Assembly: GCA_016793645.1 (NCBI GenBank)
Contig: JAEUHD010000202.1
Coordinates: 12,174-76,173 of the forward strand
Length of the DNA stretch: 64,000 nt
Origin: Verrucomicrobiales bacterium
GTDB taxonomy: Bacteria; Verrucomicrobiota; Verrucomicrobiia; Limisphaerales; UBA9464
Direction of reading: 5' to 3'
A program made the translations under genes and the position numbers. Position 1 is the first letter of the stretch. Each line of letters starts with the position of its first letter. Shown here one piece after another: positions 25,518 through 55,628 of the stretch. The notes beneath the pieces were generated by a model. The model saw nothing but the letters and a program-made list of their open reading frames with translations. It was not told where the DNA came from and made no database searches.

Positions 25518-25738
25518 CCTCGGATCCAGGGGAAGCGCAAGCGTCCTTCGCGGCAACAGCATAAGAATGGGAAAAAGGTAGCATATCTTTTGCCGGGAAA
25601 AGTCTCGAATTCGCTTCAGGCCCGGATGGGGTTGAGGCTGGGCTCCTGTGGTTCGCCGGGGGATGTTGCCGAGCCATCGATCCGGTGGACTGCATTTCCC
25701 GATTGCGTCGGACACGGACTGTGAGTTCATCCGCGGCC

Positions 25739-40025: not shown

Positions 40026-40714
40026 GACGTGACCAGGGCTCCGTCGCGAAGTTCCACGATCCGGTCCATCCGGCGTGCGAGGTCGGGGCTGTGGGTGACC
40101 ACGATCAAGGTGACCGATTCATCCCGGTTCAATCCGACCAGCAGGTCTCCCAGAACCTCGGCGTTGGCCTGGTCAAGGGCTCCGGTCGGTTCATCCGCCA
40201 GCACCAGGAGCGGGGAATTGATCAGGGCCCGCACGACGGCGGTCCGTTGCCGTTCGCCCCCGCTGAGTTGACCCGGAACGTGATTCGTTCGTGAACCGAG
40301 GCCCACCCGATCCAGGAGTTGGCGCGCCCGGTCCTCCGCGGAGGCGGGAGAAGTCCCTGTTTCTGCGAGGGTGGGGAGCAGGACGTTCTCCAGAACGGTG
40401 CACTGGGGCAGGAGGTGATGGCTTTGAAAGACAAATCCGATGCGACGGTTCCGGAGTTGCGCGAGTTCGCGGGCGTCCAGCGTGGAGAGGTCCCGGCCGT
40501 CGAAGTGGATGGATCCCGAGTCGGGACGGTCCAGGGTTCCGAGAAGATTGAGGATCGTGCTTTTTCCGGATCCGCTCGGTCCGAGGATTGCAATGCGTTC
40601 CCCGCGGGCGACCTGGAGACGCGCACTTTTCAGAACCGGGACCGGGACCTCGCCGGGGTACGACTTGGACACGTTCCGGAGTTCCAGCAGGGGGACCACT
40701 TCGTTGGCCGACAT
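40022..40714 (-). CDS. ABC transporter ATP-binding protein (LolD/MacB-type)
   Basis: Walker A GPSGSGKST, Q-loop, signature LSGGERQR and Walker B LLVLADEPTGALD are all present. Start set at the internal ATG 40714 (MSANEVVPLLELRNV); the track start is 40753. Confidence 0.9.
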   Translation of the reverse strand: MSANEVVPLLELRNVSKSYPGEVPVPVLKSARLQVARGERIAILGPSGSGKSTILNLLGTLDRPDSGSIHFDGRDLSTLDARELAQLRNRRIGFVFQSHHLLPQCTVLENVLLPTLAETGTSPASAEDRARQLLDRVGLGSRTNHVPGQLSGGERQRTAVVRALINSPLLVLADEPTGALDQANAEVLGDLLVGLNRDESVTLIVVTHSPDLARRMDRIVELRDGALVTS

Positions 40715-40813
40715 TCGGACGGCAGGGTAGTGCCGGAACGAAATGGAATCCATGGCGGATCGCCATTCCGTGCGGGCAATGTCGTCCGGGTGCCGGTGTG
40801 CGGCCCCGTCCGG

Positions 40814-41731
40814 CTACGACAACCGGTACACGCGACGGGCGTTCCGATGGAAGTACTTTGCCGAGGCCCTGGGGCCCTTGGTGGCGAAGTACTCCTGAAC
40901 AAGGTGAAGCACCGTCCCATAGGTGGCGAAATGAAGGCTCACGGGCCAGTTGCTTCCGAAGAGGACGCGGTCCTCCCCGAAGGGATGCCAGATGGCGTCG
41001 AGAACGGACTGGTAGACCGAAAGGTCCTGGGGCGCCGTGCCTCCGCGGCGGCCCGTTCCCTCCACCAGTCCGCTCACCTTCATGCTGACATTGGGGGCGT
41101 AGTGACAGGCGACCAGACCGGCGATCCATTCATTCGGTGGCGGCGTTTCTACCGGGACGTTGCTGCAATGATCCACGATGATCTGAAGGTCGGGGAGGGT
41201 CCGTCCGAGGTTGGCGGCCTCGGGCAGTTGTTCCGGGGGGATCAGGACGTCCACGGACAATCCCCGCCGGGCGAGGTGTTTCAGGTCGTCCTGGACGGCC
41301 CCCGGGGACTGCGCGGCGCGCAGGGTTTCGGAACCGATGCGTATTCCCCGAAAGCGGCGATTTCGGGCGAGGGCATCGAGCTGTTTCCGGAAGGTGGGCG
41401 CGCCGGGAGTCAGATTGCCCACGACGCCGAGGATCACGGGATTCCTGTCCGCGAGGGCAAGCAGCCACTCGTTGTCCTTCGGCCAGGGACTCGCCTCGAT
41501 GACCACGGTGCCGACCACGCCGAGCGGTTGGGTGAGCGCCGTGAACTCCGCGGTGAGCACGGGACGGTAGAGGACCGGATCCCGGGCATCCGGCCAGGGA
41601 ACCCCTTCAGCCCGGGTGGGATCGTAGAAATGGGTGTGGCTGTCGATGATTTGCGGCCGGGACGCTTCGGAGGTGGCGCACCCGGCGACCGTGGCGACGA
41701 TCGCGGACTGGAGGAAACCTCGACGATTCAT
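40814..41731 (-). CDS. amidohydrolase-2 family metal-dependent hydrolase with Tat signal / lipobox
   Basis: The internal ATG at 41731 of track ORF 40814..42577 gives MNRRGFLQSAIVATVAGC (twin-arginine motif plus Cys), followed by IIDSHTHFYDP (metal-binding HxH). The upstream 282 codons of the track ORF overlap nuoN out of frame and are Arg/Gly/Pro-rich noise. Confidence 0.8.
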   Translation of the reverse strand: MNRRGFLQSAIVATVAGCATSEASRPQIIDSHTHFYDPTRAEGVPWPDARDPVLYRPVLTAEFTALTQPLGVVGTVVIEASPWPKDNEWLLALADRNPVILGVVGNLTPGAPTFRKQLDALARNRRFRGIRIGSETLRAAQSPGAVQDDLKHLARRGLSVDVLIPPEQLPEAANLGRTLPDLQIIVDHCSNVPVETPPPNEWIAGLVACHYAPNVSMKVSGLVEGTGRRGGTAPQDLSVYQSVLDAIWHPFGEDRVLFGSNWPVSLHFATYGTVLHLVQEYFATKGPRASAKYFHRNARRVYRLS

Positions 41732-43200
41732 TGCAGCGGATTGAGGAGGAGACCGGGGAGGAATCCGAGAACGAGGGTCGCCCCGGCGAGCAGGAGCAGA
41801 GCGAACAGGGTCAGGGGGGCGACCCGCAGCGCGGGGGCCGGGGTGGCTGCGGGCAGCAGCAGCGCATGACGGACGATCTGCAGGTAGTAATAGAGGGCCA
41901 CGGCGCTGGTCCCGACTGCGACCGAAAGGATCCAGAGCCGCCCGGACTGGGGTTCGCTGGAAATGGCCCGGACGAAGACGAAGAATTTCCCGAAGAATCC
42001 GGCGAGCGGCGGAATGCCCGCCATCGAGAGGACGAATACCGAGAGGCATGCCGCCAGGACCGGCGAGCGGCGTCCGAGGCCGGCCAAGCCCGGCAGGGTC
42101 GGTTCCTCGCCGGCCGCCTCCATCGCCGCCACCACCCCGAATGCTCCGAGCGCGGTGATGGCATAGGTCACGGCGAAGTAGAGCACGGCGGCGCCGGATT
42201 CCGGGCGCGGATCCATCAGGCCGAGGAGGCCATAGCCGCCCTGCGCGATGGCCGAGTAGGCGAGCAGTCGGCGCAGGTCGGTTTGACGGAGCGCGGTCAG
42301 GTTCCCGGCGACCATCGAAAGCGTGGACAGGACCGCGATCCAGGGGATCCAGCCCGGACTCCAGGGGATCCTGCCGGCCGAACCCGCCGTGTTCGCACCG
42401 AATCCGACGTGCAGCACCCGCAGGAGCAGGACAAATCCCGCGACCTTCGAGCCCGAAGCCACGAGGGCGGCTGCCGGTGTCGGTGCCCCCTGGTACACAT
42501 CCGGAGCCCAGAGGTGAAAGGGGGCCACGGCAATCTTGAAGGCGAGGCCCGACAGGGTCATGACGAGGGCGATCCAAAGAAGCGGTTCCCGGGGAAGTGC
42601 GGCGAGGCGGGACCCGATCACACTGAGTTGGACGGAGCCCGTGAGTCCGTAGAGAAGGCTCATGCCAAACAGCGTGAGGGCGGCGGCGATGCCTCCGAAG
42701 AGGAAGTACTTGAGCGCGGCTTCCGTGGCGCCGGGTCGTTCCTCGTGAAGCGCCGTCAACACGTAGAGGGTCAGGCTGACGAGTTCGAGGGCGACGAACA
42801 GCATGAGCAGGTTGTCGGTGCCGATGAGCAGCATCATTCCGGCAGTCGCGATGAGCAGCAGGGCAAAGAATTCACCGGCATGGCGGGTGAACCGACCCGG
42901 CATGGCGAACACCACGGTTGCCAGGGAAAGTAGGAGCAGGACTCCCTTCAGGAACTGGGTTCCGGGCAGGGGTCGAAACGCGCCCGCCAGTGTTTCCACG
43001 GGGACGGCACCCATCCCCAGGACTCCCCAGGATGCCAGGAGTCCCACGGCGGCGCAGGTCCCCGAGTTCGCCATTCGTTCCGAAAGGGCGCGCCTGCCGA
43101 AGACGCGCAGGTCGAGCAACAACACGGCCAGCGCGGAAACGACCAGCACCGCTTCGGGAAGCAGTTGCCTGAGCAGGTCGAGATGCAGGGGGCCGTTCAT
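41728..43200 (-). CDS. nuoN: NADH-quinone oxidoreductase subunit N
   Basis: 490-aa polytopic ORF of the ND2/NuoN type (LELVSLTLYVL...FHLWAPDVYQGAPTP). Last nuo gene in the array. Confidence 0.9.
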   Translation of the reverse strand: MNGPLHLDLLRQLLPEAVLVVSALAVLLLDLRVFGRRALSERMANSGTCAAVGLLASWGVLGMGAVPVETLAGAFRPLPGTQFLKGVLLLLSLATVVFAMPGRFTRHAGEFFALLLIATAGMMLLIGTDNLLMLFVALELVSLTLYVLTALHEERPGATEAALKYFLFGGIAAALTLFGMSLLYGLTGSVQLSVIGSRLAALPREPLLWIALVMTLSGLAFKIAVAPFHLWAPDVYQGAPTPAAALVASGSKVAGFVLLLRVLHVGFGANTAGSAGRIPWSPGWIPWIAVLSTLSMVAGNLTALRQTDLRRLLAYSAIAQGGYGLLGLMDPRPESGAAVLYFAVTYAITALGAFGVVAAMEAAGEEPTLPGLAGLGRRSPVLAACLSVFVLSMAGIPPLAGFFGKFFVFVRAISSEPQSGRLWILSVAVGTSAVALYYYLQIVRHALLLPAATPAPALRVAPLTLFALLLLAGATLVLGFLPGLLLNPLQ

Positions 43201-43228
43201 CCGGGTGCTTGCAGGGATTGCGATTCAC

Positions 43229-44713
43229 TCATGGGACCATCACGCGCCGGAGTCCGTCAAAGAAGGGGCCCGCCAGTGCCGGCTGGATCCAGTCCAGCAC
43301 GAATCCCGGGAACAATCCCAGGCCCACGGTGGACACCAGCAGCAGGCCGGATCCCAGCACCTCGGGGACGGTGATGGGTGCGGGGGGCGCGAGGGCCTCC
43401 AGCGGAGGTGAGTCGTCGCCGCGGAAGAATCCGAGGTGGACGGCCCGAAGCACGTAGGCGGCCCCCAGGAGGATTCCAAATCCCGCGACCGCCACCAGGC
43501 GTCCGGAAACCGGCCAGGTGCCGAGAAGAATCTGAAGTTCCGCGATGAAGCCGCTGAATCCGGGAACTCCCATGGAGGCAAATCCGGCGAGCACAAACGT
43601 GACTGCGGCGAACGGCAGGGTTTTCCCGAGACGGTGCGCCCCGAGTTCCTCCAGGTCGCGCGTATGGGTCCGGTCATAGACCATTCGTCCGACCACCGCG
43701 AACAGGAGTCCGGCAATGATGCCGTGGGAGATCATTTGCAGGACAGCTCCGGACAACGCCAGGGGGGTCGCCATCGCCAGTCCGAGGATCACAAAGCCCA
43801 TGTGGCTGACGCTGGAGTAGCCGATGACGAACTTGAAGTCGCGCTGCCGGAGGGCGACCAGGGCTCCCCAGACGATTCCGGCCACGGCGAGCACGCCGAA
43901 TACGAATCTGGACTCCCGCGCTCCCTCCGGGAGGAGGGGCAGGGCGATGCGGAGACATCCGTAGGCGCCCAGCTTCATGATGACGCCGGCCAGCAACATG
44001 GAGGCGGCTGTCGGGGCCGCCACATGTCCCGTGGGCGCCCAGGTGTGGAGGGGCCAAAGACCGGCGAGGATGGCAAATCCGGCAAACAGGACCGGAAAGG
44101 CCCAGGCTTGGGTGGATGGTGGAAACGAGTGCCGGGCCAGGGCGGAAAGATCCAGTGTGTTGAGGCCGCTCGTGGCGTACAGGGCGACGATCCCGACCAG
44201 CACCGCCGCGCTCCCGAGGAACGAATAGAGGGCAAGCTTCATCGCCGCGTAATCCCTCCGGGTCGAACCCCAGCGTGCGATGAGGAGGTACTTCGGGATG
44301 ATCGCCAGTTCGTAGAACACGAAGAACAGCAGCAGATCCCAGCTGAGGAAGACGCCGTACACGGCACCAATCAGCGTCAGGTAAAGTGAGAAGAACTCAC
44401 CGGGCCGATCCTGGACATTCCAGGAGAATAGGACGCCCCCCACGGAGGCGATTCCCGTGAGGACCAGGAGGGATGCGCTCAGGCCATCCGCCGCGAGGTG
44501 GAACTCGGCGCCCCAGGTGGGGATCCAGGGCAGGCGCACGAGGGTCACGACCTCCGCCCCGGGCGTCCGCTGGATCACGGCGGTGACCGTCAAAAGGAGC
44601 CCGAGGCCGCAGGTGGCGAGGGTGATCCAGTGGGGCAGACGCGAGGCCGTTCGGCGCCACAGGAGCAGGCCCAGGGCGCTCGCGAAGCAGAGGTAGAGGG
44701 GGAAGGCGAGCAT
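43229..44713 (-). CDS. nuoM: NADH-quinone oxidoreductase subunit M, second tandem copy
   Basis: 494-aa ND4/NuoM-type ORF (FYELAIIPKYLLIARWGSTRRDYAAMKLALYSFLGSAAVL...HTWAPTGHVAAPTAASMLLAGVIMKLG). Confidence 0.85.
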   Translation of the reverse strand: MLAFPLYLCFASALGLLLWRRTASRLPHWITLATCGLGLLLTVTAVIQRTPGAEVVTLVRLPWIPTWGAEFHLAADGLSASLLVLTGIASVGGVLFSWNVQDRPGEFFSLYLTLIGAVYGVFLSWDLLLFFVFYELAIIPKYLLIARWGSTRRDYAAMKLALYSFLGSAAVLVGIVALYATSGLNTLDLSALARHSFPPSTQAWAFPVLFAGFAILAGLWPLHTWAPTGHVAAPTAASMLLAGVIMKLGAYGCLRIALPLLPEGARESRFVFGVLAVAGIVWGALVALRQRDFKFVIGYSSVSHMGFVILGLAMATPLALSGAVLQMISHGIIAGLLFAVVGRMVYDRTHTRDLEELGAHRLGKTLPFAAVTFVLAGFASMGVPGFSGFIAELQILLGTWPVSGRLVAVAGFGILLGAAYVLRAVHLGFFRGDDSPPLEALAPPAPITVPEVLGSGLLLVSTVGLGLFPGFVLDWIQPALAGPFFDGLRRVMVP

Positions 44714-44720
44714 GGGCGGG

Positions 44721-46277
44721 CTACGGAGCGAGTCCGGCGACGAAGGCCACGACGGACGGATTCGTCCATCGCAACAGCAGTTGGGGGAGGATCCCCGGCA
44801 GCACCAGCAGCGCCAGCATGGGGGCGAGCACCAGGCATTCCCGGCGGCTGAGGTCCTGGAATTCCTGTCGGGCCGGGTTCACGGGACCGTTCAGGACGCG
44901 GTGGAGCAGCGTCAGCAGGAAGACGGCGGTCATCATCAAGCCGGGCAGGGCGAGGGCGGCGGCCCCCGGAGCCAGCGGGAAGGCGCCCTTGAAGATCAGG
45001 AACTCACCAATGAACCCCGAAAGTCCCGGCAGGCCCAGGGATGCAAAGACGGCGGTTCCGAGCATTCCGGCGAGGATGGGAGCCCGTGCCCGGAGGCCGC
45101 CGAAGTCCTCCAGTTGCCGGCGTCCTCCGGTGCGTTGTTCCAGGATCCCGACCAGTGCGAAGAGCAGGGCGGCATTGATGCCGTGATTGAACATCTGGAG
45201 TACGGCGCCATTGAGGGCCGCCGCCCGTTCATTGGCCCACTGCGGACCCTGGGGAACCGGATCCAAGGCCACGAAAATCCCGAGGAGGCAGTATCCGAGG
45301 TGATTGATGGAGGAGTAGGCCAGGATTCGCTTGAGGTCGGTTTGTGCCAGGGCCACCAGGGTGGGAAACACGATGGAAACCACGACTCCCACGAGAATGG
45401 GGCTGAGCATGGTCCGGGTTTCTGCAGGGAAGATCGGGATGAGAATCCGCAGGATCCCGTAGACCCCCATCTTGGACAGGGCTCCGGTCAGCAACAGCGT
45501 GACACTCGTGGGTGCCTCGGCGTAGGTGTCCGGGAGCCACGTGTGGAAGGGGACCAGGGGAATCTTCACCGCCAATCCGGCGAAGGTGCCGAGGAAGAGA
45601 ATCGAGGCGAGGCGGGTCGGATTGAGGCCGGTCCAGGCAAAGGCGCGCGACAATCCGGAGGACAGGGAGCCGTCCCGGGCTAACGCCGCCAGATTTGGAA
45701 AATCCATCGTGCCGGTGGCCAGGAACAGGGCCTGGAACGCGAGAAGAAGGGCCACGCTTCCCGCGAAGGTGAACAGGAAGAACTGCAGTGCCGCCGTTCG
45801 ACGACCGGGCCCCCCCCAGAACTTGATGAGGAAGTACGCTGGGATCAGTCCCAGTTCCCAGTACAGGAACCAGTGGACGAAATTGAGTGCGGTGAAGTTC
45901 CCGAGGAGTCCCGTTTCCAGGGCAAGGATGAGGGCGAAGTAGAGGCGGGGACGCTCGGAGGGGAACGGGGACGTCGCGATGGCGAACGGAATGAGGAGCG
46001 TCGTCAGAAGGATGAGCAGGAGGTTGAGACCGTCCACGCCCACGAAATACTCGGCGCCCACCGAGGGGATCCAGGGAGCCCGTTCGATGAACTGCAGTTG
46101 CCCACCCTCCGTGCGGAACTGATGGGCCAGGAAGACGCCCTCCAGAAGGGTCAGCAGCGAGATCCCGAGGGTGATCGGACGGGACGCCCGCGCGAGCGAT
46201 GCCGGAAGCACCATGAGAACGACGACACCGATCAGCGGTGTCAGCGTCATCAGGGTCAGCATGGGCAGATCCGTCAT
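44721..46277 (-). CDS. nuoM: NADH-quinone oxidoreductase subunit M, first tandem copy
   Basis: 518-aa ND4/NuoM-type ORF (YWELGLIPAYFLIKFWGGPGRRTAALQFFLFTFAGSVALL...FHTWLPDTYAEAPTSVTLLLTGALSKMG). Confidence 0.88.
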   Translation of the reverse strand: MTDLPMLTLMTLTPLIGVVVLMVLPASLARASRPITLGISLLTLLEGVFLAHQFRTEGGQLQFIERAPWIPSVGAEYFVGVDGLNLLLILLTTLLIPFAIATSPFPSERPRLYFALILALETGLLGNFTALNFVHWFLYWELGLIPAYFLIKFWGGPGRRTAALQFFLFTFAGSVALLLAFQALFLATGTMDFPNLAALARDGSLSSGLSRAFAWTGLNPTRLASILFLGTFAGLAVKIPLVPFHTWLPDTYAEAPTSVTLLLTGALSKMGVYGILRILIPIFPAETRTMLSPILVGVVVSIVFPTLVALAQTDLKRILAYSSINHLGYCLLGIFVALDPVPQGPQWANERAAALNGAVLQMFNHGINAALLFALVGILEQRTGGRRQLEDFGGLRARAPILAGMLGTAVFASLGLPGLSGFIGEFLIFKGAFPLAPGAAALALPGLMMTAVFLLTLLHRVLNGPVNPARQEFQDLSRRECLVLAPMLALLVLPGILPQLLLRWTNPSVVAFVAGLAP

Positions 46278-46283
46278 GTTGAT

Positions 46284-48296
46284 TCAGGACGTGGCCAGAA
46301 ACAGCAATCCGGCCGCGAGGGCGATGACTCCCGCGATGAGGATTCTGAGGGAGCGCTGGGGTTGGCCATCGTGGGTCCTTGAGAGCAGACCGCCGGCATC
46401 GCGTGCGGCCTGGCAGCCGTCATCGAAACTGGCATTCAGAACGCCCTGGTCCACCGTGCGGCTGAGCCAGGAACCCGCGGAGGCCGCAAACGACGCAAGG
46501 TCCCGAAAGACACTTCCGAGCGACTGATCCAATGCGGCGGAAATCCAGGCCGCGGCACCCACCCACTTCACGAGGGTCGCCCGGTAGAATTCGTCGAAAC
46601 GGAACCGGTCACGCATCAGGGTGTACATGCGCGGCACCCACCGTTCCAAGGGATCCCGTCCTGTTTTCAGCGCCACCCCCAGGTTGCGATAAAGGATCCC
46701 CCCGGCGGCCAGGCCCGCCCCGCAGGCCAGCGCGGACAGGATGAGAATGCCCCAGACGGAACCGGACTCGGACGGGGTCGATGCGGGGGAAAGAAAGTGT
46801 TCCAGCCAGGGACGGAACGGGGTCGTGACCGCGCTCAGGGCAATGCTCGCTCCGGCGAGAATTCCCAGGGGGACGGTCAGGACCGGTGAACCTTCATGGG
46901 CATGGGCCGAGTCGGGGCCCCGGGACGTCCCGGCGAACACGTAGATCATCTGGCGCGTCATGTAGAAGGCGGTCACCGCCGCGGTTAGCACACCGAGGAG
47001 GAAGGGAACCCGCGAGGGTGCCCAGTGGGAAAGCGAGTGAAGGATCGCGTCCTTGCTCCAGAATCCGGAGAAGAACACCGGAACGCCCGAGAGCGCCATC
47101 ATGCCCACGGCGTAGGTGGCGAAGGTGAGCGGCATGCGGCGCCGCAGTCCGCCCAGGTGCCGGATGTCCTGCTCTCCGTGGCAGCCGTGGATGACCGAGC
47201 CGGCGCCGAGGAACAGGAGCGCCTTGAAAAAGGCGTGGGTGAGCAGGTGAACCATGCCGACGGCCGGACCGCCCGTGGCGAGACCCATCATCATGAATCC
47301 CAACTGGGAAATGGTGGAATAGGCCAGGATACGTTTGATGTCCGTCTGGGCGACGGCCGTCAGGGCGCCGAAGAGGGCGGTGAGGGCGCCGGTCCATGCC
47401 ATGACCACGAGTGCGGGCGCCGGCAGTTCGGCTGATCCTCCCAGGGCGACCAGGGGAAACATGCGCGCCATCAGAAAGACGCCGGCGGCCACCATGGTGG
47501 CGGCATGGATCAGGGCGCTGACCGGTGTCGGTCCTTCCATGGCGTCCGGAAGCCAGACGTGCAGCGGCAGTTGCCCCGATTTCCCGACCGCCCCGCAGAA
47601 CAGGAGCAGTGAGATGGCGGTGCCCAAGGCGAGACCACCTGCGGTGGCGCGACCGGCGATCCCCGAAAGCGCCGCCGGCTCGAGGCATCCGGCGCCCTGA
47701 TCGTAGAACAGGACCGTGCCGCTCTCCGAGTAAAGCCAGATCAGTCCCACCAGAAATCCCAGATCCCCGATCCGGGTTGTCAGGAAGGCCTTTCGGGCGG
47801 CGTCGGCGGCCGGGGGGCGTGAATACCAAAATCCGATGAGGAGGTAGGAGGCGAGCCCGACGAGTTCCCAGCAGATGAACAGAAGGAGCAGGCTGTTGGA
47901 CAGGATCAGGCCGAGCATGGCCGCGGCAAACAGGGAGAGGAAACAGAAGAAGCGTCCGGAATCGGGGTCCTCCGCCATGTATCCGGTGCTGAAGATGAAA
48001 ATCAGCGTTCCGACCACGGTGATCATGAGCAGCATCGCGGCGCTCAGCGGATCCAGAATCCATCCGACGCGCACCGACAGGGTCCCCGTCTCAAACCAGG
48101 GCACGTTCGAATACAGCGCGCCACCCCGGACCACGGACAGGAACGCCGCCGCGGCGAGGATCGCGGCCGTCGCGAGTGCGGCCACGGAAAGTCCCGCGGT
48201 CACCCGATGGAGCCGCCGCGGGAGAAAGGTTCCCACCGTCGCCGCCAGCAGCGGCAGCAGTGGGATCACCCACAGGTTCTTGGCGAGGTTCTCCAT
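46284..48296 (-). CDS. nuoL: NADH-quinone oxidoreductase subunit L (long form, 670 aa)
   Basis: Contains FSTGYMAEDPDSGRFFCFLSLFAAAMLGLILSNSLLLLFICWELVGLASYLLIGFWY and HVWLPDAMEGPTPVSALIHAATMV. The C-terminal tail is extended. Confidence 0.92.
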   Translation of the reverse strand: MENLAKNLWVIPLLPLLAATVGTFLPRRLHRVTAGLSVAALATAAILAAAAFLSVVRGGALYSNVPWFETGTLSVRVGWILDPLSAAMLLMITVVGTLIFIFSTGYMAEDPDSGRFFCFLSLFAAAMLGLILSNSLLLLFICWELVGLASYLLIGFWYSRPPAADAARKAFLTTRIGDLGFLVGLIWLYSESGTVLFYDQGAGCLEPAALSGIAGRATAGGLALGTAISLLLFCGAVGKSGQLPLHVWLPDAMEGPTPVSALIHAATMVAAGVFLMARMFPLVALGGSAELPAPALVVMAWTGALTALFGALTAVAQTDIKRILAYSTISQLGFMMMGLATGGPAVGMVHLLTHAFFKALLFLGAGSVIHGCHGEQDIRHLGGLRRRMPLTFATYAVGMMALSGVPVFFSGFWSKDAILHSLSHWAPSRVPFLLGVLTAAVTAFYMTRQMIYVFAGTSRGPDSAHAHEGSPVLTVPLGILAGASIALSAVTTPFRPWLEHFLSPASTPSESGSVWGILILSALACGAGLAAGGILYRNLGVALKTGRDPLERWVPRMYTLMRDRFRFDEFYRATLVKWVGAAAWISAALDQSLGSVFRDLASFAASAGSWLSRTVDQGVLNASFDDGCQAARDAGGLLSRTHDGQPQRSLRILIAGVIALAAGLLFLATS

Positions 48297-48326
48297 GATG
48301 ACGGGCAGGGGAGGCAGGCCGGTGTC

Positions 48327-48638
48327 TCAGCCCCTGAGGCGTGAAATCTCCTCGAGTTGGGTGGTTCGGTACCGCCGGTGGATGGCGATGATGAGCGCCA
48401 GGCCCACCGCCGCCTCCGCGGCCGCGATGGCGACTGAAAACAGGACGAACACCGGCCCGTCGAGGGGTTGGGGCTGCGGGCCGTACTTCCAAAAGGTCAG
48501 GAAATTCAGGTTGGCGGCGTTCAGCATCAGCTCAATGCCGATCAATACGAGGATGGCATTGCGGCGGCACAGGGCACCGGCGAGTCCGATGCAGAACATC
48601 GCGGCGGCCAGAAGAAGGTGGAGTGTGGCGGCGGACAT
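48327..48638 (-). CDS. nuoK: NADH-quinone oxidoreductase subunit K
   Basis: The internal ATG 48638 gives MSAATLHLLLAAAMFCIGLAGALCRRNAILVLIGIELMLNAANLNF (103 aa). The track ORF is extended upstream to 48740. Confidence 0.9.
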   Translation of the reverse strand: MSAATLHLLLAAAMFCIGLAGALCRRNAILVLIGIELMLNAANLNFLTFWKYGPQPQPLDGPVFVLFSVAIAAAEAAVGLALIIAIHRRYRTTQLEEISRLRG

Positions 48639-48651
48639 GGTGGGCGATGCG

Positions 48652-49227
48652 TCAGGTGGGGGACGAAGGGGGCGTTTCGGTCCCCGCACTCCCGTGGGAA
48701 CCGGACGGGCGGGGAGAGATGCCGGGTTCGGGCAGGGCAATCAGCGCCGCCCCGATGAGGGCGGCGGTGAGGAGCAGTCCCACCGTTTGCAGGGGGAGGA
48801 GTTCCTCCCGGAGCAGTCGTTCCCCCAGATCCCGAACGGCCATCGATGGCGGAGGGGACGGAGTTGCGATGGCGCCCGGGCTGCGATGGAGAATGCCCCA
48901 GGCGAGGACTCCCCACAGGAGCACCGCAAGGCCGATTCCGATTCCGGGAGCGTTGGACCGTCGTTCGTGCGCCGAGTCGCTGCCGCGCGTCAGGAGGATG
49001 GCGAAGACGATCAGCACGGCGACGGCACCGACGTAGACCAGTATCTGGATGAACCCAAGGAACTCCGCACCCATCCGGAGGAAGACCAACGCCAGGCCCA
49101 CCAGCGCGACCGCGAGGAACAGCCCGGCATGAACCCGGTTGCGGCACGAGACCGCGGCGACCGAGCCGCCGAGGACCAGTCCCGCGACGATGGCGAAGGC
49201 GAGGCTGAGCACGGGTTCAGGAGGCAT
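48652..49227 (-). CDS. nuoJ: NADH-quinone oxidoreductase subunit J
   Basis: 191-aa ORF with AEFLGFIQILVYVGAVAVLIVFAILL, the NuoJ hallmark. Confidence 0.88.
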   Translation of the reverse strand: MPPEPVLSLAFAIVAGLVLGGSVAAVSCRNRVHAGLFLAVALVGLALVFLRMGAEFLGFIQILVYVGAVAVLIVFAILLTRGSDSAHERRSNAPGIGIGLAVLLWGVLAWGILHRSPGAIATPSPPPSMAVRDLGERLLREELLPLQTVGLLLTAALIGAALIALPEPGISPRPSGSHGSAGTETPPSSPT

Positions 49228-50395
49228 AGCGATAGGTTCGCGGAGGGTGTTGCCGCAGGAACGCGCGGTGGTAGAGAAGGTAGGGAATGCCGAACAGGAT
49301 CGCTGCAGGCAGCCAGCGCAGGAGATGGGGCCAGGGCGTCGAATACTGCCAAAGGGCCGCGACCAGGAGGTTGATCAGGCTCATGGGAAGCAGGAACTGC
49401 CAGGCGAACCGCATCAGCTGGTCCATGCGCAGGCGGGGAAGTGTTCCCCGCAGCCAGATGAAGATTCCCATCAGCACCGCCAGTTTCCCGAAAAACCACA
49501 GCCACGAGGGCACCCAGGACAGCACCGTCAGCGGAGGCAGCCAGCCGCCGAGGAAGAGTGTGATTCCGAGTCCGCTCACGGCGAAGAGTCCGAGGTACTC
49601 CCCGAGGAAAAAGAGGGCGAACTTGAATCCCGAGTACTCGGTGAAATAACCCGCGACGATCTCGGATTCCGCCTCCGGGAGATCAAACGGCGAGCGGTTT
49701 GCCTCGGCGAGCGCGGCGATGAAGAACAGGACCGCGCCGGCGGCGCCCCACGGGGTGAACACGTTCCAGCCGAGGAGAACGCCCGCGTGGACTTCGGACT
49801 GGTGGCCGATGATCGCATTCAGGGACAGCGAGCCGGTCAGCATGACGACGGAGACCGTGGACAGGAGCAGGGGCAGTTCGTAGCTCAGCAGTTGGGCGAT
49901 GGCCCGCATGGCGCCCAGGAGGGAATACTTGTTGTGGCTGGACCAGCCGGCCATGAACACCCCGAGTTCGACGGCGGTGCCGACCATCAGGAAAAACAGC
50001 AGTCCGGTTTCGGGAAGGTCGAGCGCCACCATGTTGCGTCCGACCGGCAGCACCGCAAGGGCGAGCAATGGAGGTACCACGACCACCAGGGGCGCGAGGA
50101 AGTGGACCACGGAATCCGCGGCCCTGGGGACGATGTCCTCCTTGGTGAGGGATTTGATTCCGTCCGCAGCAAACTGGAGGAAGCCAGCCGGGCCGACGCG
50201 GTTGGGACCGGGCCGATTCTGGATCCGGCCCAGCGCCTTCCGTTCAATCACGGTCGTGAGGGCAAAGATCATCGGGTAGACCGCGAGGATCGCGCCGATC
50301 GACAGGACCGCGGAAATCCACGGCTGGACCGGTGTCGGAAACCAGGAGACCACGGCGTGCTTCAGCAGGACGAAGATCTGGTCGGGGGCATCCAT
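49217..50395 (-). CDS. nuoH: NADH-quinone oxidoreductase subunit H
   Basis: 392-aa ORF with IERKALGRIQNRPGPNRVGPAGFLQFAADGIKSLTKED, the canonical NuoH/ND1 motif. Confidence 0.93.
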   Translation of the reverse strand: MDAPDQIFVLLKHAVVSWFPTPVQPWISAVLSIGAILAVYPMIFALTTVIERKALGRIQNRPGPNRVGPAGFLQFAADGIKSLTKEDIVPRAADSVVHFLAPLVVVVPPLLALAVLPVGRNMVALDLPETGLLFFLMVGTAVELGVFMAGWSSHNKYSLLGAMRAIAQLLSYELPLLLSTVSVVMLTGSLSLNAIIGHQSEVHAGVLLGWNVFTPWGAAGAVLFFIAALAEANRSPFDLPEAESEIVAGYFTEYSGFKFALFFLGEYLGLFAVSGLGITLFLGGWLPPLTVLSWVPSWLWFFGKLAVLMGIFIWLRGTLPRLRMDQLMRFAWQFLLPMSLINLLVAALWQYSTPWPHLLRWLPAAILFGIPYLLYHRAFLRQHPPRTYRYAS

Positions 50396-50398
50396 GGG

Positions 50399-50992
50399 TT
50401 ACGCGGCCGGAGGGGATTCCGGCGCCGGTTTCCGGGGTGCGGCTGCCGCAGCCGTTGCCGCCGCGGCTGCCTTGGCAAGTTCCTCCGCACGCCGGGCGTC
50501 GATGGCGGCGGCATCGGTCGGGTGCAGCTTCTGAAAGTGGGCGTTGGGCCGGGCCAACTGGTCGCGGTGCCGGAGCAGTCCCTCGAACCGGTCGTTCGTC
50601 GCCAGCTCGAACTCCTGGTCCATCTTGATCGCGTCGAAGGGGCAGACCTCGACACAGATCTGGCAGCTCATGCAGACGGAAAGGTCGATATCGAAGGTCG
50701 CGGGGAAGAACTGGGGTTTCCCGAGGTGGTCCGGCTTCTTGGTCTTGCTCTTGACGATCAGGATGCACTGCGGGGGGCACTCCTTTTCGCAAATCTGGCA
50801 GGCCACACAGCGGAGCCCGGCCTGGGGATCGGCACCGTCAAAGACGAGAAACGGAAACTGGCGCGCGTTTTCCTTGGCGGGGGCGCGCTCCTCGGGATAA
50901 CCCAGAGTCACCAGACGCTCCGGGTCGGTGAAGCTTCCGACGAAATTCTTCGCCGTGACCGCCAGACCGTGAAGTATGCCGCCTCCGAGCAT
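50399..50992 (-). CDS. nuoI: NADH-quinone oxidoreductase subunit I (2x[4Fe-4S]) with Ala/Pro-rich C-terminal tail
   Basis: 197-aa ORF with two ferredoxin motifs, CVACQICEKECP and CMSCQICVEVCP. The tail reads AKAAAAATAAAAAPRKPAPESPPAA. Confidence 0.88.
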   Translation of the reverse strand: MLGGGILHGLAVTAKNFVGSFTDPERLVTLGYPEERAPAKENARQFPFLVFDGADPQAGLRCVACQICEKECPPQCILIVKSKTKKPDHLGKPQFFPATFDIDLSVCMSCQICVEVCPFDAIKMDQEFELATNDRFEGLLRHRDQLARPNAHFQKLHPTDAAAIDARRAEELAKAAAAATAAAAAPRKPAPESPPAA

Positions 50993-51001
50993 GGTTGGGT
51001 C

Positions 51002-52171
51002 CTAACGGTCCACTTCGCCGAGGACGATGTCGACACTTCCGAGGATCACCACGGCATCCGCCACCGAGCGGCCGAGGCAAAGGTCCTCCAGGATGGTCAG
51101 GTTGATGAAGCTGGGCGGACGGATCCGGTATCGCCACGGATTCGGGCCGCCATCGCTGATGAGGTAGAATCCCAGCTCGCCCTTGGGGGATTCGATCCGG
51201 CCGTAGGATTCCCCGGGTTTCGGCCGGAATCCGCGCAGCTTTGCCTTGGGATCGATCACCGGGCCTGCGGGGATGCGTTGCAGTGCGGCGCCCAGGATCC
51301 GGAGCGATTCCCGCATTTCCAAGGCCCGGATCATGTAGCGATCAAAGACGTCCCCGTGATCCCCCAGCGGCACCCGGAACTCGAACTGGTCGTAGATTCC
51401 GTACCGGTCGACCTTGCGGATGTCGTACGCCACGCCGCTGGCCCGGGCCATGGGACCCGAGATGCCCGCGTTGATCGCCAGTTCCCTGGGGAGGATCCCG
51501 ATGCCCTGGGTGCGCCCCAGGAGGATTTCGTTGGAGGAGAGGAGGGCCTCGAACTCGTCCAGAAACGCGCCGAACCCGGTCACGACGGATCGTGCCTGTT
51601 CCAGCCAGCCCGGAGGAGTGTCGCAACGACATCCGCCAAACCGCATGTAGTTGCACATCATCCGGGCCCCCGTCAGGGACTCGAACAGATCCAAAATCCT
51701 TTCGCGCTCCCGGAAGGCGTACATCAGGGGAGTTCCCAGGGCGCCCATGTCCTGGAGCAGGAATCCGCAAACGGCGGCGTGGTTCTGGAGGCGGGTGAGT
51801 TCCGCGGTGATCACGCGGAGGTACTCGGCGCGTTCGGGAACCTGAAGTCCGGCGAGTCGCTCGACGGTCAGGGCGTAGGCCCAGTTGCTGGTCAGCGAAC
51901 AGAAGTAGTCGAGACGGTCCGTGTACGGCATCGAACCGAGGTAGCTGGTGTTTTCAGCGATCTTCTCGTGGTTTCGGTGCAGGTATCCGAAGACCGGCTT
52001 CAGCTTCACCACGGTTTCGCCGTCAAGCACCACGTCCATCCGGAAGACCCCGTGGGTCGAGGGATGCTGGGGGCCGAGGGAAACTTCCAAAAGGCTCCCA
52101 TCGTGAACCGGATCGGCCGCGTCCGGGGACGGCCGGACTTCAAAGGTGCGCGGGGCCGCGGCCGGATTCAT
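51002..52171 (-). CDS. nuoD: NADH-quinone oxidoreductase subunit D
   Basis: 389-aa ORF with [21 protein letters not shown]...[12 protein letters not shown]...PYTDRLDY...[11 protein letters not shown]...IVLGEVDR. Confidence 0.94.
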
Positions 52172-52866
52172 CGGGGCGCCTCCTGGCTGGCACGGTGTCG
52201 CTGGGCGCGTTCAAGGACTTCGTCGTGCGGAGTGGGTTCGTACTCGTAGTCGTCGGGAGGAACGTAGTCCCTCCGCATCGGATGATCCCGGAAGCCTTCC
52301 CACAAAAGGATTCTTCGCAGGTCGGGATGATCCGAAAACCGGACGCCGAACAGGTCGTACACCTCCCGCTCCTGAAATTCACAGCTCCTCCACACCGGGG
52401 TCAGCGAGGCGACCTCCACGTCCGTGGTGCGGTTGGAGGTTCGCTGCCGCAGGATGACCGGTCCGCCCCCGAGGGCGACGGAGTACAGGTGATAAACAAC
52501 CTCAAGATACCCCGGGCGGTGCTGGACCTCGGTCACCTCCTTCTCGATCCCGTCCACCGTCCTTCGGACCATCACCTTCTCGTCCCGATCCGGCCAATCC
52601 ACGCCGGTGACATTGGAACAGAAGTCGAGCCGGAGATCCGGCGTGTCGCGCAGCCACCGGGCCACCGCGCGCGCATCGGAAGGGGGCACTGCCAGGGAGC
52701 CTTGGGACGGGACGGCGGCATTGGACACCAGCGCGATCCGGGTGCCGGGGAGCTCCCGAAGGAGTCGGGTCTTGAGCGCTTCCAATTGCTCCACAGCCCC
52801 GTTGTAGTGGGACTGCTCCGATGAGAAAAGGCTTTCCCGCACGAAGTTGCGGATTCCCGAAACCAC
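52168..52866 (-). CDS. nuoC: NADH-quinone oxidoreductase subunit C
   Basis: 232-aa ORF with LEVVYHLYS...[30 protein letters not shown], the NuoC signature. GTG start taken from the track; the N-terminus is uncertain. Overlaps nuoD by 4 nt. Confidence 0.85.
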
Positions 52867-52890
52867 CGGCCCTCCCGCATGCGGACCCGG

Positions 52891-54570
52891 TCAACGGGGA
52901 CGCGTTTGAAAGGGACGGAAGTTGTACCACCGCAGTTCCAGATCCCGGCTTGCGAGCCACCCCCAGACGCAGGCAAGCGTCCCTTGTGTGAGCCCGAATC
53001 CCAGTCCGAACCAGCAGGCGGCGGAACGATCCTCCGAAACACCCGGAAACGGCGGGCCGGAGGAGCACCAGGCGAGGGTGGCCAGGCCAATCAGGAAGGG
53101 GAGAATCCCCGCCGTCAGGAGACTCCAGATCATTCCCGCGAGCGGATGAAGGCGCCGGACGGCGTAGCGAATTCCGATGGCGGGGATCGCGGCGAGGGAG
53201 GTCGTGCCGGCGAGAAGGATCGCAAACATCAGCGGGTAGGACGGGTCCGTCCGCGGGGATTGCACCGCCAGCAACAGCAGATTGAGGGAGATGGCCGGGA
53301 TGAACAGGGACCAGGCTTCAACGACCCGGGCGGAGACCAGTCGCGCGGCCTCCAGGGGTGTCACGAGCAGGAGTTCCAGCGTTCCCTCCTCCATCTCCCG
53401 CCGCAGGCTTGCGGCTGCGGACATGGCCATGGGAATGGACAGGGCCAGAGGGATTGAACGGGGGATGATGGTCCATGCCTCGGAATCCGGGGACAGGACA
53501 AGAGTTCCCATCCAGAGTGAGGCGACCACGGCCACCCAGGCCCCTCGTGCCCAGTATCCCGGGCCGGCCTTCGCCCAGAGCCAGCGGGCCGGATTCCCTT
53601 GGAGCCATTTCAAACGCTGCTTCTCCCGGACCCGATCCAGCCAGGTGGCGGAGGTGCGGACGGATCCGGAGGACGGGCGTCGACGCTGTTCGTCGTGGGA
53701 TTTGGGGCGGAGGAGCGCCTCCACCCGCCATCCCGCAAACGCGATCGCCGCAGCGGACAGGGGCAAGGTGCCGATGACCCCCGCGAGGAGCATCCACATC
53801 AGGGTGGACTGCGTTGCGGGCGGCATGGAGGCGAGTCCATTGCCAAAACCTCCGAAAGGGACGCCGGAGCCGATGCTCAGGATGTCAATACTGACGGTCC
53901 ACACGCTGCCCTGCCAGCGGGCGGTCTGCATCAGGGAGGCCTTCGCCCCGGGAGACTGCAACAATGCGGATCCGGCCGTGACCGCCATCAACCCTCCGGC
54001 GGCCAGGGTCATCGCAAATGCCAGTCCGGCGGATTGCGTCCACTGACGGCATACGGACGTGGACACCAGGCCCGAGGCGAGGCCTGTCGCCAGGATGATC
54101 CACTCCACTCCCAGGGCAATCTCCAGATCCCGCGGCGCGACCCCGCCGGCCAGGACGGGAATGATCAATACCGGGACGCAGGCGAGCCAGAGGGGAATGA
54201 GGCGAAGGATCTGGGCTGCGGCTTTTCCCAGAACGATTTCGATGGGGCGCAGCGGGGTCAGTCCCAATAGGGGAAGGGTTCCCTCCCTTCGTTCCCTCGA
54301 GATGGTGTCCGCGGCGATCATGGGGGCGGCCAGGAGCAGAACGAGGGAGAGCACCGTGTGGAGAAGTGCGAAAACCCCGGCGCCCGGGTTGAGGGTTGAG
54401 CCCCGACCAAGGGTTGAGGCGACGTTGTCCCCGACCCCGTGCAGGAACAGGGTCAGCAGTGCGGCGGCGGCGATGGTTGTCCGAAGCCAGTAGGTTCCCC
54501 GGCGTCGCGCCGCCGCCCTCAATTCTCGAAGGAGTACGGCCGGGAGTAATTGGGGGGACCTGATGGCCAT
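52891..54570 (-). CDS. fused (internally duplicated) ABC-2 type transporter permease
   Basis: 559-aa polytopic ORF. The ABC-2/NosY-type motif occurs twice: ISRERREGTLPLLGLTPL in the first half and LRREMEEGTLELLLVTPL in the second. No ATPase gene is adjacent. Confidence 0.65.
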   Translation of the reverse strand: MAIRSPQLLPAVLLRELRAAARRRGTYWLRTTIAAAALLTLFLHGVGDNVASTLGRGSTLNPGAGVFALLHTVLSLVLLLAAPMIAADTISRERREGTLPLLGLTPLRPIEIVLGKAAAQILRLIPLWLACVPVLIIPVLAGGVAPRDLEIALGVEWIILATGLASGLVSTSVCRQWTQSAGLAFAMTLAAGGLMAVTAGSALLQSPGAKASLMQTARWQGSVWTVSIDILSIGSGVPFGGFGNGLASMPPATQSTLMWMLLAGVIGTLPLSAAAIAFAGWRVEALLRPKSHDEQRRRPSSGSVRTSATWLDRVREKQRLKWLQGNPARWLWAKAGPGYWARGAWVAVVASLWMGTLVLSPDSEAWTIIPRSIPLALSIPMAMSAAASLRREMEEGTLELLLVTPLEAARLVSARVVEAWSLFIPAISLNLLLLAVQSPRTDPSYPLMFAILLAGTTSLAAIPAIGIRYAVRRLHPLAGMIWSLLTAGILPFLIGLATLAWCSSGPPFPGVSEDRSAACWFGLGFGLTQGTLACVWGWLASRDLELRWYNFRPFQTRPR

Positions 54571-54765
54571 GCGGGTTCAGTTCTCAGTGGCGGACATGGC
54601 AGGGGGCAAGGGCGCAGGAAATCATCAGAAGCGATCCATGCCGGTGTCCGACTCGCAACCCCGCAAGGCTGCAACAAGTCCTCCGCGACATCGAGAAAGA
54701 CCAGGTTGAATTCGACGCCCGCCCGCACGGGCGACCGACTTTCCGGGTTCCCCCAGGGGTGCAAC

Positions 54766-54796
54766 GATCTTTTGAAAGATTTTTGAAAGATTTTTG
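54766..54796. repeat. AT-rich tandem repeat, 11-bp unit TTTGAAAGATT x2.4 (GATYTTTTG x3)
   Basis: Read directly: gatcttttgaaa gatttttgaaa gatttttg. Lies in the lowest-GC stretch of the window, between the ABC-2 permease start and the IS630-type ORF. Confidence 0.8.
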
Positions 54797-54947
54797 CTGC
54801 GCATCCACGTAACCTTCAGTAAAGGTTTTTCGTAGTCATTGTTTTGTAGTTCTTCAATGCCGGCGGCCTTGTGCGTGGGGTGGGAAACTCCGCACGTGGA
54901 GGTTGTTGGGGGAGAATGTGATCCGCCTAGAACCGACTAACCAATTT

Positions 54948-55460
54948 ATGCGTTTGGACCAGAAATTTATTTCAAAGGCTAAGTCTCCCCGCAGGGATTT
55001 CGGACAATTGGAGGCGCGGCGGCGTGAAGGAATGCGCCTGTTGGGTGAGGGGCATGCCCAGGCGGACATTGCCCGCATGCTGGGAGTTTCCGAGGTATCG
55101 GTTTCTCGGTGGAAACGAGCCTTCCAATGTCGGGGGAATGATGCCTGGCGCCGGGGTAGGCTGGGCAAGCCCCCCAAGGTGGAGGATCACCATTTGACGG
55201 TGATGCAGCAGTTCATTTCCGCTGGGGCTCGGGTTTACGGTTACCAGGATGATCGGTGGACCTATCCCCGGATCGCCTCGGTCCTCGAGGTCCTGACCGG
55301 CTTGAAGATTCATCCGGACCATTTGTGCCGGGTTTTTCATCGGGCTGGAATGACAACGGCCCGGAAGTTTTCCCCGGCGGGTGTTGTCGCCGGCAGCGGT
55401 TCCACGAAGGCGGCCGCAGTGGCGGCGAAGCGGGCCGTCCGTGACGTCGTCGTTCGCTGA
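54948..55460 (+). CDS. IS630-family transposase N-terminal HTH/winged-helix ORF without a DDE domain (probable IS remnant or domesticated HTH protein)
   Basis: Contains EARRREGMRLLGEGHAQADIARMLGVSEVSVSRWKRAF...GRLGKPPKV...WTYPRIASVLEVLTGLKIHPDHLCRVFHRAGMT, matching the HTH + wHTH layout of IS630/Tc1 transposase N-termini. The ORF stops before any DDE region, and only about 170 nt remain before the next gene. Early codons are AT-richer than the rest of the window. The track start is TTG 54903; ATG 54948 is preferred. Confidence 0.6.
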   Translation: MRLDQKFISKAKSPRRDFGQLEARRREGMRLLGEGHAQADIARMLGVSEVSVSRWKRAFQCRGNDAWRRGRLGKPPKVEDHHLTVMQQFISAGARVYGYQDDRWTYPRIASVLEVLTGLKIHPDHLCRVFHRAGMTTARKFSPAGVVAGSGSTKAAAVAAKRAVRDVVVR

Positions 55461-55628
55461 TTACGGCGTTCGGGTTCGCTGAATCAACGGGGGAAACCCT
55501 GAACGGCGCACTCGAAAGGTGTTCGCCGAGTGGATTCCGCGAGCTTTGGGCCTTGAATCGGCTGCCTGTGCCGGGCGATTTGAAGGGGGCGCTGTTTCGG
55601 AACGTCCGTTCCGGCCGCTGGAAGTGCC

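Follow-up and report, generated by a model that had tools for sequence, protein, structure and literature searches.

The stretch of DNA analyzed here, referred to as the window, comprises 64,000 nucleotides of a contig from a Verrucomicrobiales bacterium (GenBank assembly GCA_016793645.1, contig JAEUHD010000202.1, positions 12,174 to 76,173). The list of open reading frames (ORFs) and their translations revealed on its minus strand a tightly packed operon of complex I (nuo) genes in the order C-D-I-H-J-K-L-M1-M2-N, with intergenic distances of -11 to +30 nt. Four antiporter-like genes lie at its distal end: the long form of nuoL (46284..48296, minus strand; 670 aa), two copies of nuoM, designated M1 (44721..46277, minus strand; 518 aa) and M2 (43229..44713, minus strand; 494 aa), and nuoN (41728..43200, minus strand; 490 aa). 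The L–M1, M1–M2, and M2–N gaps are 6, 7, and 28 nt long. All four products scored above the curated NCBIfam cut-offs: NuoL with NF005141 (580.8 vs 556), M1 and M2 with TIGR01972 (454.7 and 426 vs 263.8), and NuoN with TIGR01770 (358.4 vs 332.6). An earlier note on this DNA, made from the letters alone, had called genes of 670, 518, and 494 aa at these positions, with the two nuoM 7 nt apart, and the ORF list confirmed them. The NuoM hallmark motifs it quoted were also found in the translations, YWELGLIPAYFLIKFWGG in M1 and FYELAIIPKYLLIARWGS in M2. NuoL was 100% identical to the NCBI record 'NuoL [Verrucomicrobiales bacterium]', which comes from a Verrucomicrobiales metagenome-assembled genome (MAG), and Foldseek matched it to NdhF/NuoL/ND5 chains with template modelling scores (TM-scores) of 0.72–0.79. 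A relative with approximately 90% amino-acid identity, known from an independent assembly (locus L083), has the same gene order and the same product lengths (670/518/494/490).

The earlier note had also counted a NuoL tail of 104 aa, about 30 aa longer than in E. coli, and had related the surplus to the lateral amphipathic helix (HL). The motif FDEFYRATL begins at NuoL residue 567, which leaves 104 aa to the C-terminus; the tail behind the same motif measures 73 aa in E. coli NuoL (613 aa) and approximately 73 aa in T. thermophilus Nqo12 (606 aa). Altogether the protein is 57 residues longer than its E. coli counterpart. Approximately 31 of these fall between the FDE.Y motif and transmembrane helix (TM) 16, and the other 26 or so are in loops of the main body. 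Since hydropathy placed TM16 at the extreme C-terminal end in all NuoL forms, the extra tail residues must lie between the motif and TM16, a span of 83–87 residues in long forms vs 54–64 in short forms. In a profile–profile alignment of 21 short and 56 long tails, about 25–28 long-tail columns (33–53 and 57–60) remained unmatched in the middle of the helix with both flanks aligned, which puts the extra 25–28 residues at NuoL ~599–626 (46419..46502, minus strand; boundaries approximate). The AlphaFold2 model, based on a 49-sequence alignment (mean predicted local distance difference test score, pLDDT, 79; predicted template modelling score, pTM, 0.78), comprised TM15 at residues 511–535, helical pieces from residue 539 onwards (539–545, 549–553, and 555–562), a continuous helix at 564–641, and then TM16 at 646–669. 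The HL region thus covers residues ~539–641 (46374..46682, minus strand), and the TM16 anchor helix, supported by both the model and hydropathy, occupies 46290..46361 (minus strand). The mean hydrophobic moment of HL was 0.32 vs 0.23 in shuffled sequences (p ~0.03). By this mapping, approximately 28–31 of the extra NuoL residues sit in the middle of the lateral helix. An internal duplication was considered as the origin of the insert, but the self-comparison peak at offset 26 was weak and stood among helical-period peaks at 22, 26, and 30, so it is not claimed.

The relation between helix length and the number of nuoM genes was followed in the 80 closest NuoL loci (numbered with the prefix L), taken one genome per species; these loci are related, and the counts are thus not independent events. 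Sixty loci had sufficient sequence downstream of nuoL, 44 with a long tail (99–109 aa, mostly exactly 104) and 16 with a short one (75–82 aa). Three antiporter-like genes after nuoL (M1, M2, and N) were scored in 38 of the 44 long-tail loci. Three more (L023, L036, and L051) contain both M genes and had been scored as two via contig truncation or the length filter, so that two M genes accompany the long tail in 41 of 44 loci. None of the 16 short-tail loci has a second M gene; all carry M and N only, and nuoE, nuoF, or nuoG was present within the fetched sequence in 10 of them. No nuoE, nuoF, or nuoG was found in the fetched sequence of any two-M locus. The two-M loci belong to Verrucomicrobiota, Acidobacteriaceae, Chloroflexota, and one MAG labelled Acetobacteraceae, and their common order is (A)-B-C-D-I-H-J-K-L-M1-M2-N. 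The pairing of a second M with a long NuoL has also been reported in separate 2M clades (PMC9040806).

Some of these loci showed peculiarities of their own. Apparent M1–M2 fusion ORFs (1030 aa in L014 and 1005 aa in L032) were rejected as ORF-extension artefacts in high-GC DNA, and tblastn recovered separate M1 genes in L014, L032, and L008. In four loci of Chthoniobacterales and their relatives (L026, L031, L033, and L047), the operon is split and divergent, with B-C-D-I opposite H-J-K-L-M1-M2-N. In an Opitutales MAG (L049:1-22000), a full B-C-D-I-H-J-K-L-M1-M2-N operon is immediately preceded by the last part of an ordinary nuoL-M-N cluster, and hence one genome holds both complex I types in tandem.

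M1 and M2 share 35% identity over 487 aa, a divergence that excludes a recent duplication or an assembly repeat. The MrpD/Hyf models scored both copies at 138–170 bits, roughly three-fold lower than the NuoM values of 426–455. A neighbour-joining tree with a simple distance correction was built from 144 antiporter-like sequences (450 columns, 200 bootstraps), with Hyf proteins as the outgroups and no MrpD. All M-type sequences grouped together in 200/200 bootstraps, and E. coli HyfB, HyfD, and HyfF fell outside. The M1 orthologues formed a clade in 172/200 replicates (86%) and the M2 orthologues in 199/200 (99.5%). M2 joined the single M of NuoEFG-type operons in 182/200 (91%), and M1 grouped with the M of long-helix single-M operons in the point tree with weak support; M1 and M2 were sisters in 0/200. 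As the two copies belong to different deep NuoM lineages, with M2 on the side of the canonical M, M2 was an old acquisition or an old duplication and not a local copy. This phylogeny agrees with the published description of the extra nuoM as inserted between the original nuoM and nuoN (PMC8004040).

Against L083, the ratios of nonsynonymous to synonymous substitution rates (dN/dS) of M1 (0.084) and M2 (0.077) did not exceed those of L (0.105) and N (0.109). Both M genes are thus intact members of the NuoM family under strong purifying selection. Two statements of the earlier note are upheld by these data: that the copies are too diverged for a recent duplication or an artefact, the same arrangement being found in an independent assembly, and that both belong with NuoM rather than with Mrp or Hyf subunits, as judged from the model scores and a tree in which Hyf was the outgroup. 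The M1 clade also carries an insertion of approximately 14 residues in the TM10–TM11 loop (window 45225-45272, M1 residues 336–351), which M2, E. coli NuoM, and the canonical M lack; it is present in the single M of L077 and not in those of the Omnitrophota and Ignavibacteria loci described below.

The 2M complex I was defined by a second NuoM and a longer NuoL with an HL insertion of ~26 aa (PMC6606698, PMC9040806), so the variant to which the earlier note pointed is indeed a described one. Both features are present in this operon. It is a further member of the class already described by Chadwick et al. in 2018 (as cited in PMC8004040 and PMC11636273), and represents nothing new in kind. We consider it probable that these genes specify the membrane arm of a complex-I-like enzyme of the 2M type, with four antiporter-like subunits clamped by the longer NuoL helix. 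L, M1, M2, and N would stand side by side, with both M proteins in the complex simultaneously, and would be held by a lateral helix about 28–31 residues longer than usual. At 1.5 Å per residue, this surplus corresponds to roughly 40–45 Å. The width of one antiporter-like subunit is about the same. From the four antiporter-like genes we infer five pumped protons: the enzyme would translocate five instead of four protons per two electrons, or would need one more when running in reverse.

Several observations weigh against this reading. The long helix accompanies a single M at three loci, L055:9980-14890 (Omnitrophota), L071:9971-15240 (Ignavibacteria), and L077:9923-15277 (Anaerolineales), where a tail of 101–104 aa goes with one M and N, and unrelated genes (a GlmS-type domain pair, an ATP synthase subunit, DUF3048, and others) lie downstream of nuoN. 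Some Manganitrophaceae complexes likewise have the HL insertion and one M (PMC9040806). A long helix alone is no proof of a fourth antiporter-like subunit, and the four-subunit complex proposed here is a prediction from its genes. The distal part of the helix was predicted by AlphaFold2 with low confidence (pLDDT 50–67 over residues 611–650), and the neighbour-joining method with its simple correction limits what the tree can tell. Neither nuoA and nuoB nor nuoE, nuoF, and nuoG were found by tblastn within the 64-kb window. Finally, M2 has a leucine in place of the TM7 lysine and lacks the Asp of the WLPD motif, with WAPT where the other subunits carry WLPD, so that the full four-position channel set is not complete in this copy and M2 might not function as a standard channel. 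The five-proton estimate is weakened somewhat by the loss of this lysine, by the long-helix single-M loci, and by the lack of nuoA and nuoB in the window.

The earlier note had expected conserved channel residues in each M copy. This held entirely for M1, whose charge set is complete (E141, K238, K269, H326, H365, and E425, matching E. coli NuoM E144, K234, K265, H322, H348, and E407). All four key channel positions are filled, and E141, K238, K269, and E425 were invariant in 20/20 M1 orthologues. NuoL and NuoN carry the canonical charged residues as well, with E139, K222, and K405 conserved in NuoN. For M2 the expectation held in part: the copy keeps E135 (TM5), K247 (TM8), H304, H330, and E392 (TM12), all invariant in 21/21 M2 sequences, but the position of the TM7 lysine is occupied by Leu216 (codon 44066..44068, minus strand). 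The residue was aligned to E. coli NuoM K234 with MAFFT, and phmmer independently gave the same result when M2 was aligned with the PDB chains of Paracoccus and E. coli NuoM (8qby_M, 7p61_M). According to a review, a TM7 Lys/TM5 Glu pair occurs in every antiporter-like subunit (PMC10212512).

The leucine is not a peculiarity of this genome. It was present in 21/21 M2 orthologues at the compared loci and in 120/120 M2 database homologues, and the latter all have a lysine directly after the TM5 proline (K141 in M2; codon 44291-44293, minus strand). That lysine was found in the M2 of Verrucomicrobiota, Acidobacteriaceae, and the Acetobacteraceae-labelled MAG and in the single M of L070 (labelled Gemmatimonas), and was missing from the M2 of Chloroflexota. 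Every single-copy NuoM in the sister clade showed the same Lys-to-Leu change, including those of 14-subunit operons, in hosts assigned to Verrucomicrobia, a MAG labelled Gemmatimonas, and a deltaproteobacterium (among others, loci L050, L057, L058, L064, L065, L067, and L070). A database search for named cultured relatives of these Lys-less single-copy proteins gave only close environmental relatives. Three further charged positions co-vary with the change: E106 in TM4 (codon 44396-44398, minus strand) and R423 in TM13 are gained, and the arginine equivalent to E. coli R313 is lost. As the substitution is fixed in single-copy NuoM proteins and in M2 under purifying selection, it does not mark a dead subunit, and by comparison of the sequences we interpret it as a trait of this lineage, a functional NuoM subfamily, and not as decay. 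One may tentatively go further and suppose, although we regard it as rather doubtful, that M2 and the whole widespread NuoM lineage, including the only M of many 14-subunit operons, work without the TM7 Lys/TM5 Glu pair. If this were true, either the ion pair would be dispensable for pumping, or M2 would be a relay and the 2M enzyme would add no simple standard channel. The missing TM7 lysine makes M2 a natural test case for how far antiporter-like subunits depend on the Glu–Lys pair.

These substitutions are the basis of the alternative that survives best, in which four antiporter-like subunits are assembled and M2 acts as a structural or relay spacer with no independent channel, the stoichiometry being four or otherwise altered. 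The Leu216 and WAPT replacements and the co-varying charges (E106 and R423 gained, the R313 equivalent lost) would suit such a role. On the other side stand the fixation of the same Lys-to-Leu change in the single-copy NuoM of 14-subunit operons without any other M, a lineage presumably competent in pumping, and the invariance of the remaining M2 channel residues together with its dN/dS of 0.077. We therefore hold the spacer role to be unlikely.

Still less probable is the possibility that M1 and M2 are alternative isoforms used one at a time in a three-antiporter complex. Cyanobacterial NDH-1 complexes, with their alternative NdhD and NdhF subunits, provide the model, and the origin of M1 and M2 from different NuoM lineages and the long helix beside a single M at some loci would both be understandable on such terms. 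Nevertheless, the two genes lie 7 nt apart in one operon and occur as a pair, always in one order, at 41 loci from several phyla, and the second M gene accompanies the long helix and is found at none of the short-helix loci, which speaks for simultaneous rather than alternating use. The view that the second M is an artefact, whether through recent tandem duplication, through misassembly, or as a pseudogene in decay, is refuted by the low identity of two full-length copies with low dN/dS, the like arrangement in independent assemblies, and their failure to group as sisters in any bootstrap. Equally, assignment of one M copy to a Mrp- or Hyf-type subunit of a different machine is effectively refuted by the NuoM scores of 426–455 bits vs 138–170 and by the position of Hyf, the outgroup of a tree without MrpD, outside the M clade in all replicates.

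For the favoured 2M-type membrane arm, the missing subunits would have to come from elsewhere. NuoB bears an essential iron–sulfur cluster and NuoA is a core membrane subunit, and given their absence from the window they must be encoded at another locus if the enzyme works; nuoA and nuoB would accordingly be supplied in trans. Most other two-M loci have both genes directly upstream of nuoC. Both are absent from this position in the close relative L083 as well. In the window, the place is taken by a gene for an ABC-2 type permease/membrane protein (52891-54570), which ends 24 nt before nuoC and is also found next to nuoC in the relative with ~90% amino-acid identity (L083, L084). The NuoE, NuoF, and NuoG module that characterizes a strict NADH:quinone oxidoreductase is not encoded in the window, and for this reason NADH via NuoEFG is probably not the electron partner; ferredoxin, or a module encoded elsewhere, is possible. 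Ferredoxin, including operation in reverse, has been proposed for 2M complexes (PMC6606698, PMC9040806).

Among the systems described so far, the closest are those of Chloroflexus aggregans, with a transcribed 12-gene cluster (Cagg_1620-1631) containing an extra nuoM (PMC8004040), and Acidobacterium capsulatum, in which the 2M version is expressed (PMC11636273). They share with the window the core order C-D-I-H-J-K-L-M-M-N, the lack of nuoEFG, and the position of the additional nuoM, after the first copy and before nuoN. The window differs from them in its host, an uncultured Verrucomicrobiales bacterium, and in the region upstream of nuoC, where the ABC-2 permease gene takes the place of nuoA and nuoB. 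The comparison was made with MAGs related to the published strains: L081, from a Chloroflexus sp., and many MAGs from Acidobacteriaceae encode M1, M2, and a NuoL with a 104-aa tail that fall into the clades of the window proteins. The Nitrospira 2M complex ('clade 3' of Chadwick et al. 2018) also has a second NuoM, a long NuoL with an HL insertion of ~26 aa, and no nuoE or nuoF (PMC6606698, PMC12342949). It is described as forming a clade of its own and as having an enlarged nuoG homologue, unlike the window, which has no nuoG. The complex has been suggested to translocate one additional proton and perhaps also to operate in the reverse direction, towards ferredoxin (PMC6606698, PMC12342949). 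No Nitrospira loci were among the 80 closest NuoL loci.

More distant systems share fewer of these traits. Canonical complex I (E. coli NuoA-N, T. thermophilus Nqo1-15) has the same folds and families of C, D, H, I, J, K, L, M, and N, but one M, a NuoL of 606–613 aa with a 73-aa tail, NuoEFG, nuoH before nuoI, and the TM7 Lys of NuoM. Complex_I_3 of 'Candidatus Manganitrophus', which has five pumping subunits altogether, and the rhizobial green complex I resemble the window in their extra ion-pumping subunits and a 26-aa HL insertion; in both, two MrpD-like subunits replace NuoL, whereas the window encodes an ordinary NuoL-family protein (PMC9040806). Cyanobacterial and chloroplast NDH-1 (6hum, 6khj) contributed the best PDB match to the window NuoL in both sequence and structure, namely NdhF1. 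It also lacks NuoEFG and uses ferredoxin (6l7o, entry title 'Fd-NDH-1L complex'), but has a single NdhD per complex, subunits specific to oxygenic phototrophs, and an HL without the extension; the tails of the cyanobacterial loci L073 and L079 are ~75 aa long. No four-antiporter structure was among the 50 best Foldseek matches in PDB, and no paper on a verrucomicrobial 2M complex I was found in the open-access literature.

The remaining genes of the operon, all on the minus strand, encode subunits C, D, I, H, J, and K. NuoD, the 49-kDa subunit of the quinone module (51002..52171), matched NF004739 (414.9 vs cut-off 360) and had a dN/dS of 0.048 against L083. NuoH (49217..50395) matched NF004741 (327 vs 305) and NuoK (48327..48638) matched NF004320 (99.1 vs 57); the start of the latter, the ATG for MSAATLH, was chosen by comparison with a 103-aa orthologue and gives a product of 103 aa. 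Thus D, H, K, L, M1, M2, and N exceeded the curated NCBIfam cut-offs, and C, I, and J were assigned by best match. For NuoC (52168..52866), TIGR01961 and the other NuoC models all scored below their cut-offs, and Pfam Complex1_30kDa was detected in the L083 orthologue. Its start codon is uncertain, the call in a close relative being 216 aa, its N-terminus has additional residues relative to the family models, and the gene overlaps nuoD by 4 nt. NuoI (50399..50992) matched NuoI models, has the two CxxCxxCxxxCP motifs of a 2x[4Fe-4S] subunit, and ends in a low-complexity Ala/Pro-rich tail (…AKAAAAATAAAAAPRKPAPESPPAA). NuoJ (48652..49227) matched NuoJ models, and its orthologue contains Pfam Oxidored_q3. 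The nuoI gene precedes nuoH (49217-50992), the reverse of E. coli, and this order is common to the two-M loci in which the upstream region was read. The AT skew of the plus strand within window 42000-50000 rises to ~0.24–0.26 exactly over the membrane-subunit genes, which we read as the effect of T-rich hydrophobic codons on the coding (minus) strand and not as a separate feature. A promoter and terminator scan of 40500-56000 returned sites no more numerous than in shuffled sequence. Elsewhere in the window, a single ORF of 3386 aa occupies 15570-25730 (minus strand).

The 2M complex I is thought to shift the proton-to-electron ratio at the entry point of the respiratory chain. An altered ratio would bear on the energy yield or on what it costs to drive electrons backwards to ferredoxin. 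In our sample, helix length and M gene number matched each other almost perfectly, which is clean comparative support for the idea of a clamping helix. Beyond the nitrifiers, the 2M type is also common among Acidobacteriaceae and among Verrucomicrobiota of soil and freshwater, which gives it a broader ecological relevance.

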